The translations under genes were made by a program, and so were the position numbers. A DNA stretch of 4,372 nt from a virus (lineage: Duplodnaviria > Heunggongvirae > Uroviricota > Caudoviricetes). This document shows, piece after piece, positions 1-4,372 of this stretch. The notes below the pieces were generated by a model, which saw only the letters and a program-made list of their open reading frames with translations, was not told the origin of the DNA and searched no databases. Position 1 is the first letter of the stretch. Each line of letters begins with the position of its first letter. The stretch lies in the IMG/VR virus record IMGVR_UViG_2778261454_000004; one strand, 5' to 3'.

Positions 1-283
1 GGTTGAGAAGCGGTGTAAGTGAACTGCAGTTGCCATGTTTTACGGCAGTGAGAGCAGAGATAGCGCTGATGTCCGGCGGTGCTTTTGCCGTTACGCACCA
101 CCCCGTCAGTAGCTGAACAGGAGGGACAGCTGATAGAAACAGAAGCCACTGGAGCACCTCAAAAACACCATCATACACTAAATCAGTAAGTTGGCAGCAT
201 CACCCGGGCCTTACGCTAATGTAACTTCTTTCCTTCTTCGAACCAAACCGTGTACACCATCCGTTATCTGCGGAGGTAAGGCT

Positions 284-499
284 ATGAAATCCATGGATAA
301 GTTAACAACGGGCATCGCCTACAGCACCTCTGCAGGCAGTGCTGGCTACTGGTTTTTACAGTTGCTCGATAAAGTCACGCCCTCACAGTGGGCGGCAATA
401 GGTGTATTGGGTAGTCTGGTATTTGGCATGCTGACGTATCTGACAAACCTTTATTTCAAGATTAAAGAAGACAAGCGTAAGGCTGCATGGGGAGAGTAA
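284..499 (+). CDS. essQ: Class II pinholin, phage 21 S-type, 71 aa with dual start (antiholin from ATG 284, holin from ATG 293)
   Basis: Translation [71 protein letters not shown]. Two predicted TMDs: a Gly/Ala/Ser-rich SAR-like TMD1 and a hydrophobic TMD2, then a charged C-terminal tail. The Met-Lys-Ser-Met N-terminus is the classic holin/antiholin dual-start motif. GGAGG at 267-271 sits about 12 nt upstream of ATG 284. The listed ORF 191-499 begins at an in-frame TTG; 284 is the first ATG. The Qin-paralog symbol is inferred from the neighbouring cspI/ynfN/gnsB/ydfO context, not from a search. Confidence 0.85.
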
Positions 500-503
500 T
501 TCA

Positions 504-818
504 ATGACTCAAAAATATGAACTGATTGTGAAAGGGATCCGCAATTTTGAGAATAAAGTTACGGTAACTTTAGCGTTACGGGACAAAGAACGCTTTGACG
601 GTGAAATTTTTGACCTGGACATCTCGCTGGACCATGTTGAAGGTGCCGCGCTGGAGTTTTATGAGGCAGCAGCCAGAAGGAGCATCAGACAGGTCTTCCT
701 GGATGTTGCTGCCGGGTTATGTGAAGGGGACGAGCTGTTGCCAGAAACGCGACCCTGTTCAGAGGCTCGGTATACCATAAAAATTAACAGTTCAGATAAC
801 TCGATTACGGGTTGTTAG
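504..818 (+). CDS. ydfR: YdfR-like protein of unknown function (DUF1327-type), 104 aa, between holin and endolysin
   Basis: Intact ORF starting 4 nt after the holin stop, with GGGGAGAG (490-497) 6 nt upstream of ATG 504. Acidic, no predicted TM segment. The position between the holin and lysozyme genes matches the Qin-type lysis cassette as I recall it. Function unknown. Confidence 0.7.
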   Translation: MTQKYELIVKGIRNFENKVTVTLALRDKERFDGEIFDLDISLDHVEGAALEFYEAAARRSIRQVFLDVAAGLCEGDELLPETRPCSEARYTIKINSSDNSITGC

Positions 819-873
819 CTTTTTGCAGTTGGCTTTCCAGTATCTTTCATTGGTAGCATCCTGATAAATATCC

Positions 874-1901
<1,028 letters not shown>

Positions 1902-2151
1902 GGTAATATTAAATCGGAACATTTACATCGCGGAATGTAAAATTTAAATAAAAAGGACTCTTCCATGAGCCAAAATTCCTGAAATCTTAAGGGTAAGATA
2001 AAAGGTCTTAATCAGAATGACACGTTTTATTAATAAATAAAGCTATTCTTTCATTGCTGTGTTTTTCTTTACAAAAGTAATCCTTGCTATGGGTGGTTAA
2101 TCATGCGTTAATGGTGTTCTGGTTTGTTACAAATTTATCTGAAGCAGTCAT

Positions 2152-2160
2152 TGTTATAAT
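2152..2160 (+). promoter_or_regulatory. Candidate extended -10 promoter element (TGtTATAAT) for cspI
   Basis: Perfect TATAAT at 2155-2160 preceded by TG at 2152-2153, inside an AT-rich block. It would give a leader of about 95 nt before cspI. A second candidate (TTGCTA 2084-2089, 18-bp spacer, GTTAAT 2108-2113) would give a longer leader. No experimental support. Confidence 0.4.
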
Positions 2161-2262
2161 TTTATTATTTGTACCTCTTGAGATTTCCTTGTTGGTTTTT
2201 CTCTCTGATATTTTTTTCGGACCATTCTGCCCAAGGGCTAATTTCTTCAAAAGGTAATAATT

Positions 2263-2475
2263 ATGTCTAACAAAATGACTGGTTTAGTGAAATGGTTTAA
2301 CCCTGAAAAAGGTTTTGGTTTCATCACGCCGAAAGATGGCAGCAAAGATGTGTTTGTCCATTTCTCAGCAATTCAGAGCAACGATTTCAAAACATTAACT
2401 GAGAATCAGGAAGTTGAATTTGGTATTGAGAACGGACCTAAAGGTCCTGCCGCTGTTCATGTAGTGGCGCTTTGA
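2263..2475 (+). CDS. cspI: Cold-shock protein of the CspA family (CspI), 70 aa
   Basis: Translation [70 protein letters not shown] carries the cold-shock-domain RNP1 (KGFGFI) and RNP2 (VFVHF) motifs. The AAGGTAATAATT-ATG initiation region resembles that of cspA. Preceded by a long AT-rich leader. Confidence 0.93.
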
Positions 2476-2563
2476 GGTAGACAATATTACAAACCATATT
2501 CACTTTAGATGCCCGTGTTGTCATGGTTCCCAGTATAGAACATCATCTTTTGATGTTTCTGAC

Positions 2564-2674
2564 ATGAATCCTTTCGGGGCAAAATGTATCTTTTGTAAAT
2601 CAATGATGATTACATTTGATAATATTTCACAATACTTAAATGCCAGCCGTCTGTCGTTGGATTTAAAAAAGTGA
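2564..2674 (+). CDS. Possible small zinc-ribbon-like ORF or gene remnant; only the ATG-initiated 36-aa part is annotated
   Basis: The frame is open from 2465 to stop 2672-2674 and reads ...CPCCHGSQYRTSSFDVSDMNPFGAKCIFCKSMMITFDNISQYLNASRLSLDLKK, i.e. two Cys pairs (CPCC and CIFC) about 22 residues apart. No ATG, GTG or TTG lies upstream of ATG 2564 in this frame, so the first Cys pair has no canonical start. Below the length cut-off of the ORF track. Confidence 0.25.
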   Translation: MNPFGAKCIFCKSMMITFDNISQYLNASRLSLDLKK

Positions 2675-2679
2675 AAATG

Positions 2680-2702
2680 AAGGCTCCTTCGGGAGCTTTT
2701 TT
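2680..2702 (+). terminator. Intrinsic terminator: GC-rich hairpin with UUCG tetraloop followed by a T-run
   Basis: Stem AAGGCTCC (2680-2687), loop TTCG (2688-2691), stem GGAGCTTT (2692-2699) with one G-U pair, then TTTTTTG; six T at 2697-2702. Lies about 200 nt after the cspI stop and before ynfN. Confidence 0.75.
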
Positions 2703-2820
2703 GCTTGGTGTCTATTCGATGGATACTCACATACTACGGTAACATCATGAAAAAAATCATAGTTTTTTTAACTCTGAACCAGCAGTGGTAGTGCCAGCGA
2801 TGACTGGAGTTAACACCATC

Positions 2821-2976
2821 ATGCGTGAATATCCAAATGGCGAAAAAACACACCTTACTGTAATGGCCGCAGGGTTTCCATCTCTGACCGGAGATCATAA
2901 AGTCATTTATGTAGCCGCGGATCGACATGTTACTTCAGAAGAAATTCTGGAAGCAGCAATAAGGCTCTTGAGTTGA
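2821..2976 (+). CDS. ynfN: YnfN-like small protein, 51 aa (alternative start ATG 2800 gives 58 aa)
   Basis: Translation MREYPNGEKTHLTVMAAGFPSLTGDHKVIYVAADRHVTSEEILEAAIRLLS. Length and position (between cspI and gnsB) match my recollection of the Qin-prophage cold-shock-induced gene ynfN. GGAG at 2806-2809 is 11 nt upstream of ATG 2821. Start choice is not verified. Confidence 0.6.
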   Translation: MREYPNGEKTHLTVMAAGFPSLTGDHKVIYVAADRHVTSEEILEAAIRLLS

Positions 2977-3093
2977 TTTGATGCTATTGCATTGATAATT
3001 CAGGAAAATTCTCTTTGTCTGTTTGTGTAAAATTTAGACTATCGTATGTTGATTATTGCGATGTTTCATCTTATCTTTTACACGTTTGCACCA

Positions 3094-3099
3094 TATAAT
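3094..3099 (+). promoter_or_regulatory. Candidate -10 hexamer (TATAAT) for gnsB
   Basis: Perfect TATAAT at 3094-3099, about 48 nt upstream of the gnsB start. The -35 is weak: TTATCT at 17-bp spacing, or TTTACA at only 11 bp. Confidence 0.3.
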
Positions 3100-3147
3100 C
3101 GACTTACTGTGTAACTGGAAAGTCATAACAGACTAAAAGAGGAAATG

Positions 3148-3321
3148 ATGAATATTGAAAACTTAAAAACAAAAGCAGAAGCAGATATTTCTGAATATAT
3201 AACAAAAAAAATTATTGAACTTAAGAAAAAGACCGGGAAAGAAGTTACCAGTATTCAGTTTACCGCACGGGAAAAAATGACGGGTCTTGAAAGCTATGAT
3301 GTCAAGATTAATTTAATCTGA
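3148..3321 (+). CDS. gnsB: GnsB (GnsA/GnsB family small protein), 57 aa
   Basis: Translation MNIENLKTKAEADISEYITKKIIELKKKTGKEVTSIQFTAREKMTGLESYDVKINLI closely resembles the GnsA/GnsB sequences I recall (MNIEELKK...TGKEVSEIRFTAREKMTGLESYDVKIKIM). AGAGGA at 3137-3142 is 5 nt upstream of ATG 3148. An additional in-frame ATG at 3145 would add one Met. Confidence 0.85.
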   Translation: MNIENLKTKAEADISEYITKKIIELKKKTGKEVTSIQFTAREKMTGLESYDVKINLI

Positions 3322-3347
3322 TGTATTCAATAATAAAATTTATCCAT

Positions 3348-3370
3348 AAACCTCGTTTTTACGGGGTTTT
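3348..3370 (+). terminator. Probable intrinsic terminator downstream of gnsB
   Basis: AAACCTCGT (3348-3356), loop TTTT, ACGGGG (3361-3366), then TTTTGTT. The stem has one G-U pair and is followed by a T-run. Confidence 0.5.
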
Positions 3371-3435
3371 GTTATATTTGAATGGTTCCGAATATCTAAA
3401 TCACAATTGTTGATGGTTTTTATTAAACCAATGCA

Positions 3436-3464
3436 GTCCGGCTCAGGAGTGAGAGAAGCCGGAC
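3436..3464 (-). terminator. Hairpin just downstream of the ydfO-like gene (minus strand); possible weak terminator
   Basis: Perfect 8-bp inverted repeat GTCCGGCT (3436-3443) / AGCCGGAC (3457-3464) with a 13-nt loop, starting 9 nt after the minus-strand stop. The following minus-strand sequence (TGCATTGGTTTAAT) is only moderately T-rich. Confidence 0.35.
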
Positions 3465-3472
3465 GTTATGGT

Positions 3473-3883
3473 TTAGCGTGGTAAGATCTGTGTAGTTTTC
3501 TGGATGCTTTCAGTAAATAGTAATGAATTATCAAAGGCATAGTAATATCTTTTTTGTTCGTGGATATTTGTAACCCACCGAAAAACTCCTGCTTTAGCAA
3601 GGTTTCTTCTGTATTCCTGAAATGTGATCTCTCTGGATTTCAGCTTATTAGAGGTCGTTTCTATAAGATGCCTATCCTTTGAAAATTTGACAGACACAAT
3701 GTTTTTTAGGCCCTTTAATAACACTGTATTATCATTTTTTAATACAATATGAACATTCTCTGTGGCTAAATAGTAAATGTAATGTGAGACATTGTGACGT
3801 TTTAGCTCAGAATAAAACCATTGATAGTTTAAATCGTTTCGAACTTTATCAAATATTTGTTTAAAAATGACTACCTGATCCAT
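3473..3883 (-). CDS. ydfO: YdfO/YbcV-like protein, DUF1398 family, 136 aa, function unknown
   Basis: Translation from [47 protein letters not shown]... matches the prophage YdfO/YbcV family as I recall it. Start set at ATG 3883 because GGAAGG lies 7 nt upstream on the minus strand; the listed ORF start at 3898 has no Shine-Dalgarno. Confidence 0.75.
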
Positions 3884-3940
3884 AGATAAACCTTCCATGT
3901 GATATGAGGGGGCGTAGTCTGCACGATTATCTAAATTGCT

Positions 3941-4174
3941 TCAATCTGGTCTGACCTGTTTTCTGAGCAATTCAGTAATGTCACTCTTTTCTTTGTTTGC
4001 TTCAGGAGAAACTCTTTTTTCTGAGCACAGTCTCCGGCGGCAGGCTTCAATGACCCAGGCTGAGAAATTCCCGGACCCTTTTTGATCAAGAGCGATGTTA
4101 ATTTGTTCAATCATTTGGTTAGGAAAGCGGATGTTGCGGATTGTTGTTCTGCGGGTTCTGTTCTTCGTTGACAT
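3941..4174 (-). CDS. Small basic ribbon-helix-helix (Arc/MetJ/CopG-like) DNA-binding protein, 77 aa; possibly YnfO-like
   Basis: Translation MSTKNRTRRTTIRNIRFPNQMIEQINIALDQKGSGNFSAWVIEACRRRL... shows a basic N-terminal segment (RTRRTTIRNIRF, beta-strand-like) followed by two short helices, the usual RHH pattern. It sits 57 bp upstream of the DUF1398 gene and is co-oriented with it. Fold is inferred, not computed. Confidence 0.6.
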   Translation of the reverse strand: MSTKNRTRRTTIRNIRFPNQMIEQINIALDQKGSGNFSAWVIEACRRRLCSEKRVSPEANKEKSDITELLRKQVRPD

Positions 4175-4321
4175 GAGGTTGTCCCGTATTTAGTGTCGCT
4201 GATTTGTATTGTCTGAAGTTGTTTTTACGTTAAGTTGATGCAGATCAATTAATATGATACCTGCGTCATAATTGATTATTTGACGTGGTTTGATGGCGTA
4301 GATGCACGTTGTGACATGCAG

Positions 4322-4338
4322 ATGATAATTATTATCAT
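4322..4338. promoter_or_regulatory. Perfect 17-bp palindrome ATGATAAT-T-ATTATCAT; candidate operator, Fur-box-like
   Basis: Positions 4322-4338 are exactly self-complementary around 4330. 4324-4342 (GATAATTATTATCATTTTG) matches the 19-bp Fur-box consensus GATAATGATAATCATTATC at 15 of 19 positions by hand alignment. It lies about 150 bp upstream of the RHH gene start. Confidence 0.4.
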
Positions 4339-4372
4339 TTTGCGGGTCCTTTCCGGCGATCCGACAGGTTAC

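Follow-up and report, generated by a model that had tools for sequence, protein, structure and literature searches.

The palindrome found near the right end of the DNA analysed here (the window, a stretch of 4,372 nucleotides from the caudoviricete record IMGVR_UViG_2778261454_000004) is, judged by its sequence, the already known nohB/nohA Fur box of the Escherichia coli K-12 prophages DLP12 and Qin. It is probably a high-affinity operator of the host iron sensor Fur (ferric uptake regulator) that is predicted to occlude rightward transcription across cos, and not an operator of the neighbouring DUF3950 gene. As a Fur site it is a re-discovery, for lists of the E. coli Fur regulon have included this sequence since 1994-2007. 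Iron-responsive control of a prophage gene, one of the possibilities raised by the first-pass annotation, is plausible as a prediction; no benefit of iron control over a terminase gene is evident. The question is sharpened to why one of the strongest Fur boxes of the genome sits at prophage terminase genes. The box travels with the packaging subsite cosQ and not with the neighbouring genes, it is found in both lambda and phi80, and it usually lacks a promoter.

The palindrome (ATGATAATTATTATCAT, window 4322-4338) had been described as exactly self-complementary. It is indeed a perfect 8+1+8 inverted repeat in which 8/8 outer pairs are complementary about the central T, although the centre base of a 17-mer is always unpaired. 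What stands out is the identity of the sequence, a perfect Fur consensus, and not the size of the palindrome. Chance levels were estimated by simulating the window 1000 times with a first-order Markov model; 300 of these runs served for the palindrome count. A palindrome with 8-bp arms is unremarkable on its own, at least one being present in 30% of the simulated windows. The window itself contains another perfect 8+1+8 palindrome, AAAGTTACGGTAACTTT, at 555-571 within the ydfR-like ORF (504-818), indicating that palindromes of this size arise by chance in this DNA. A match of at least 16/19 to the classical Fur consensus GATAATGATAATCATTATC was found in 0.3% of the 1000 simulated windows, and a 14/14 match to the 7-1-7 repeat TGATAATnATTATCA in none of them (the best was 13, reached twice). 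The 19-bp Fur consensus is formed by two overlapping 7-1-7 repeats, and the 7-1-7 inverted repeat is the minimal unit for one Fur dimer (PMC11353095, PMC2189734). Both the 19-bp consensus match and the 7-1-7 inverted repeat are present at the window site. The overlapping 19-mer that had been reported to match the consensus at 15 of 19 positions was located at 4318-4336 (+), and a second register, 4324-4342, matches GATAATGATAATCATTATC at 15/19 positions on the plus strand and at 16/19 on the minus strand. The coordinates of these and other features are collected in Table 1.

Table 1. Position of the Fur box and of the features associated with it in the window.
Feature	Position	Strand	Remarks
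Fur box, 8+1+8 palindrome ATGATAAT-T-ATTATCAT	4322..4338	.	homologue of the K-12 nohB (DLP12) and nohA (Qin)/lambda 48451-48467 sites
Core 7-1-7 Fur recognition unit TGATAAT-T-ATTATCA	4323..4337	.	14/14 specified bases match TGATAATnATTATCA
Overlapping 19-mer registers against the classical Fur consensus	4318..4342	.	flanking, weaker, overlapping sites
Sigma-70 promoter-like site GTGACA-16 nt-TATCAT (10/12)	4311..4338	+	consensus match only; directed toward cos and nohA
cosQ (GGGTCCT), packaging-termination subsite	4344..4350	+	lambda 48473-48479; the homologous 7 bp are annotated as cosQ in the phage 434 record
cosQ-to-cosN-nick segment (left half of cosN)	4351..4372	+	ends 1 nt before the nick, at lambda 48501
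ynfO/ylcI-type gene, DUF3950, 77 aa ('RHH gene' of the first-pass annotation)	3941..4174	-	Pfam DUF3950, E = 5.8e-21; annotated as ynfO in E. coli genomes

Over the 19 bp around the palindrome centre, the window is identical to the DLP12 site of K-12. Widening the comparison with the ylcI-nohD spacer of DLP12 to 25 bp adds a single difference, outside the 19-mer. The nohB site was placed at 579824, with 25.3 bits, as the third-strongest Fur cluster in the K-12 genome, and a cluster of four Fur sites over 28 bp was described there, in a sequence identical to that of the window (Chen et al. 2007, PMC2189734). According to its citation in the same paper, the nohB site goes back to the Fur titration assay of Stojiljkovic et al. 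(1994). The nohA site, at 1634624, was given 22.3 bits, with a second site of 12.6 bits 6 bp off, and a nohA oligonucleotide, representing the lambda/Qin variant, was shifted in gels with 150 nM Fur (Chen et al. 2007, PMC2189734). A nohA fragment had earlier been recovered by in vivo Fur selection, and later papers include nohA and nohB among the Fur-repressed genes. The reading of the palindrome as a Fur site is borne out by the identity of its 19-mer with the nohB site found in the titration assay, and by the gel shift and in vivo selection of the lambda/Qin variant. A similar palindrome at the equivalent place in lambda, as suggested in the first-pass annotation, is indeed present: lambda 48451-48467 reads ATGATAATCATTATCAC.

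The older K-12 coordinates were moved to NC_000913.3 by offsets of 777 and 1976, the latter derived from the nohA gene ends given in Chen et al. 2007. After conversion to 580601 and 1636600, the coordinates 579824 and 1634624 fall exactly on the centre bases of the homologues of the palindrome. The offset of 777, used for the nohB coordinate, follows from the genome-revision history and agrees with the total of 1976. Table 4 of Chen et al. 2007 lists the nohB site at -133, and the distance measured from the box centre to the nohD start in K-12 DLP12 (position 3602 of locus L126) is 233 bp, as for nohA.

The same position appears in a study of another regulator. An FNR ChIP-seq summit at 1634625 (old coordinates), 1 bp from the centre of the Qin Fur box, is included in a table of Fur-repressed operons, and the peak at the nohA site was interpreted as an FNR target masked by Fur (Myers et al. 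2013). This summit lies in Qin at about 1636600 of NC_000913.3 (position 3601 of locus L005). The palindrome is unlikely to be an FNR site, as judged by eye from its TGAT...ATCA half-sites, which are 7 nt apart, and from the grouping of the peak by its authors with Fur-repressed operons. The FNR consensus, TTGAT-N4-ATCAA, has a half-site spacing of 4. An IHF site was also rejected, with no match to WATCAANNNNTTR at up to one mismatch on either strand of 4281-4372, and matches of the box region to T5-like phages (E about 0.9) were taken as chance.

The window can be assigned, by its similarity to sequenced chromosomes, to the right arm of a Qin/DLP12-like lambdoid prophage. Positions 205-4372 show 99.7% identity to a Qin-type lambdoid prophage arm present in many E. 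coli chromosomes, with the gene order essD, ydfR, rrrQ, rzpQ, cspI, ymcF, ynfR, ynfN, and gnsB, and with ydfO and ynfO on the opposite strand. Positions 1-204 are the end of a multicopy insertion sequence (IS1) adjoining the region upstream of the holin gene; this assignment follows from the genome matches to the remainder, which begin at 205, and from the IS1 transposase annotated alongside in some genomes. Window 4012-4372 aligns without gaps to lambda 48141-48501, so that the window stops 1 nt short of the cosN nick. In the homologous chromosome locus (L004), the sequence runs on past the window end as GGGCGGCGACCT, followed by cosB, and nohA, the Nu1 homologue (terminase small subunit), starts 190 bp past the nick. 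This puts the palindrome 5 bp to the left of cosQ and 34 bp short of the nick; nohA follows 233 bp downstream, and the palindrome lies 148 bp 5' of the start codon of the DUF3950 gene (4174, minus strand). The first-pass annotation had missed the context formed by cosQ, the nick and nohA because these features are at or beyond the window end.

Of 5426 complete E. coli genomes, 3376 (~62%) contain the 73-bp segment that comprises the box, cosQ, and the left part of cosN (window 4300-4372), in up to 7 copies per genome and nearly always in the chromosome. Scanning genome contigs for the exact cosQ-cosN pattern returned Escherichia/Shigella together with contigs of unrelated taxa, and added no diversity. 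The latter (L127-L145: Shewanella, Bacillaceae, actinomycetes, and MAGs) carry the exact lambda cosQ-cosN at contig ends, often with low coverage, and one of these suspect contigs has 48,542 bp. Contamination with lambda DNA accounts most simply for them, given the contig-end positions and the low coverage.

Cos sites were collected from viral contigs by means of a cosN pattern plus a cosQ pattern of a second family. A box matching at 12/14 positions or more is present 5-7 bp from cosQ in 14 of the 26 unrelated left-context clusters, and a further three clusters have a 10-11/14 match; the remaining 9/26 have no box. Matches of at least 12/14 elsewhere in the same loci numbered 15 in 2.38 Mb (6e-6 per position). 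When 17 unrelated left contexts are aligned, information content is low leftward of the box, rises sharply at box position 1, falls at the unspecified centre and is otherwise high onward through the T-run. The 113 lambda-type loci comprise 25 haplotypes; per column, 0.21 minor haplotypes fall on the 14 specified positions and 1.27 on the flanks, and the unspecified centre base has six (permutation p = 0.004, which is indicative only, the haplotypes being related). This test was not conditioned on the presence of the box, and its statistics overstate independence because of the relatedness of the haplotypes. Between the box and cosQ, both the sequence of the spacer and, within a few bp, its length are variable. 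The box also stands beside cosQ in phi80, mEp043, and VT1-Sakai, whose neighbouring genes are quite different. The isolated phage 4A7 and Gifsy-1 lack it, indicating that it is dispensable. The conservation pattern is that of a selected Fur site, and is indicative of purifying selection.

The absence of a convincing sigma-70 promoter around the palindrome, as stated in the first-pass annotation, holds for the minus strand, on which a promoter scan of 4100-4372 found no promoter-like site, at the box or elsewhere. On the plus strand, however, GTGACA-16-TATCAT overlaps it, the box overlying the spacer and the -10 hexamer; this site faces away from the so-called RHH gene. The lambda/K-12 Qin variant (GTGATA...TATCAC) failed the same scan. 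Binding of Fe2+-Fur dimers to the perfect 7-1-7 repeat TGATAATnATTATCA is shown by assays published for the identical 19-mer and for the lambda/Qin variant, which is nearly identical. In the DLP12-type variant, bound Fur would cover the spacer and -10 of the rightward promoter-like site; a transcript from this site would begin within or close to cosQ and read through cos into nohA. Such transcription would be kept off in iron-replete cells, and iron starvation would relieve this effect. A promoter-like -35 is present in only 29 of 58 distinct box-bearing contexts, nearly all of them with the lambda-type left flank GTTGTGA(C/T)A, and it is absent from phi80, mEp043, VT1-Sakai, and most other box-bearing contexts that are not of the lambda type. 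Since the promoter-like site is missing in so many box contexts, promoter occlusion cannot account for the conservation of the box. The box is kept beside cosQ rather than with the left-hand genes, which suggests that its role is perhaps linked to cos or to the terminase; on this comparison of phage sequences, its primary role in live phages may be tied to that side.

The palindrome had alternatively been proposed to be the operator of the adjacent RHH dimer, which would mean that the DUF3950 protein, a putative RHH protein, regulates its own leftward gene from it. The palindrome is located in the 5' intergenic region of this gene, inverted repeats are often bound by dimeric RHH proteins, and box and gene occur together in 111 of the 246 cos loci that have enough upstream sequence (91 of the 246 have neither). 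However, 44 of these loci, with 25 distinct flanks and including phi80, mEp043, and VT1-Sakai, contain the box and no DUF3950 gene within 1.5 kb. Conversely, BP-4795 lacks the box and has a DUF3950 gene whose upstream spacer is 41 bp long, and about 100 Stx phages match the gene alone and not the intergenic region. Box and gene thus separate in both directions, and neither a consistent co-occurrence of operator and repressor nor an overlap with the repressor's own promoter was found for the palindrome, the minus-strand promoter-like site being absent there and the start codon 148 bp away. A perfect Fur consensus also argues against an RHH operator, and the RHH fold is a putative assignment, Pfam giving DUF3950 only. 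A separate perfect inverted repeat lies nearer to the gene, with 8-bp arms, ATCAATTA and TAATTGAT, separated by 17 nt (4244-4251/4269-4276), between the DUF3950 start and the Fur box. It is also present in lambda and is a better-placed candidate operator for the leftward gene. The RHH operator was consequently rejected on co-occurrence and position, and we consider it extremely improbable. No relatives of the DUF3950 protein were found in the PDB, and no functional literature on ynfO, ylcI, or DUF3950 was found. The single-sequence AlphaFold model of the protein has helices and no strand, at low confidence (pLDDT 55.6).

Three further explanations concern the vicinity of cosQ. The box could be a cos-linked element of the phage DNA cycle rather than a means of promoter control, which we regard as unlikely. 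In one variant, the arriving packaging motor might be slowed or marked, ahead of the terminal cut, by Fur sitting immediately upstream of cosQ; in another, the box, 35-51 bp from the right DNA end of the virion, might act after injection in end protection or cyclisation. In two cos families, and next to many unrelated left flanks (those of lambda, phi80, mEp043, VT1-Sakai, and the 14/26 clusters), the element lies 5-8 bp to the left of cosQ, mostly without a usable -35, and it is essentially confined to this position in the loci examined. Packaging termination requires cosQ by a mechanism described as unresolved (PMC4856287), and the cos constructs of the Feiss laboratory begin at lambda 48442 or 48446, hence they always carried the box (PMC4856287). 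Nevertheless, cosQ is described as a 7-bp site, and the box, which ends at 4338, is outside the defined lambda cos subsites (cosQ, cosN, I2, and cosB). It is not shared by all phages using such a cosQ-cosN arrangement, being missing from 9/26 left-context clusters and from Gifsy-1 and 4A7. The variable length and sequence of the spacer argue against a stereospecific contact, and no paper linking Fur with cos or the terminase was found in the searchable literature. In the cos literature examined, no deletion of the box alone was found. It is similarly doubtful that Fur is an unrecognised accessory factor at lambda-like cos sites, through which iron status would be predicted to tune packaging termination, end protection/cyclisation, or terminase expression. 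The motor would then meet the box as its final protein-bound obstacle ahead of the terminal cut, no more than about 50 bp from the first-entering DNA end.

Alternatively, the box might bind Fur and have no function of its own, being an AT-rich palindrome carried along with the strongly selected cosQ-cosN core as modules recombine. We judge this quite improbable. It is true that the box is dispensable, that degenerate versions (10-12/14) are known, and that cosQ and cosN are conserved for terminase function, so that anything within a few bp of them would be co-inherited. However, on the left, conservation sets in at box position 1 in over 10 unrelated contexts, the spacer of 5-7 bp between box and cosQ varies more than the box itself, variation is concentrated at the single unspecified centre base, and the box is a perfect consensus site, which goes beyond mere AT-richness. 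The idea that the box is a transcriptional insulator, either as a Fur roadblock or as a weak hairpin-plus-T-run terminator that protects the terminase operon of lysogens from read-through out of moron genes, seems very improbable. A conserved T-run follows the box, and in at least three box-less contexts (L156, L162, and L159) the place of the box, abutting cosQ, is taken by a GC-rich hairpin plus T-run with a shared TTTTGC/TTTTAC junction. However, these terminators may merely end the upstream gene. The RNA stem at the box is A-U-rich with a single G-C pair, its folding is no better than that of shuffled sequences (z = -0.82), and the terminator scan gave no hit at the box; an intrinsic terminator or RNA structure was rejected on these grounds. 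Moreover, the upstream plus-strand genes appear to have terminator-like hairpins of their own, identified by eye at about 2676-2702 and 3340-3372.

Among the closest known systems is the nohB (nohD) Fur box of DLP12. DLP12 and the window share 97.5% identity between the DUF3950 gene and the cos nick, and both boxes are placed alike, at 5 bp from cosQ on its left side and 233 bp before the Nu1-like gene. Unlike DLP12, the prophage of the window is Qin-like in gene content (rrrQ, rzpQ, cspI, gnsB, ydfO, and ynfO) and has an IS1 end abutting the lysis genes. The nohA site of Qin, which corresponds to lambda 48451-48467, shares the homologous position and context and the perfect 7-1-7 unit with the window. 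It differs from the window in the change of the centre T to C and of the last T to C, which shortens the palindrome to 7+1+7, and in having GTGATA in place of GTGACA upstream, with loss of the rightward promoter-like site; its score is 22.3 bits versus 25.3 bits for nohB.

The operators of classical Fur-repressed promoters, such as those of aerobactin, fhuA, fepA, and ryhB, have the same consensus overlapping -10/-35-like hexamers, with a predicted occlusion by Fe2+-Fur. In contrast to these, the gene downstream of the window box has no iron function, and the putative promoter is not conserved along with the box, whose conserved partner is a DNA-packaging signal. With respect to the subsites of lambda cos (cosQ, cosN, I2, and cosB, the latter composed of R3-I1-R2-R1), the box is contiguous with cosQ, co-conserved with it in many phages and included in the customary cos fragments. 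However, it falls outside the 7-bp cosQ, is missing from some phages with a functional cos, is not known as a site for terminase or IHF and has no IHF-like match. What modest interest remains is that lambda-like phages keep a consensus Fur operator paired with cosQ. If alteration of the box or loss of Fur changed nothing, the box would be a conserved passenger, and caution would be advisable with regulon lists drawn from binding data alone.

Some genes left of cos are also of interest with regard to iron. The phi80 gene 64 (L148 379-609), which has no Pfam match and lies about 0.9 kb left of cos, is labelled 'putative Fur-regulated protein' in its record. In the three loci L007, L011, and L048, which lack a DUF3950 gene, the box is degenerate (GTGATAATTATTCTCG). 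A lipoprotein gene encoding a TonB C-terminal domain (Pfam TonB_C, E = 7e-7) is found there, some 760-1090 bp to the left of the cos nick, and represents iron-related cargo near a Fur-like site.
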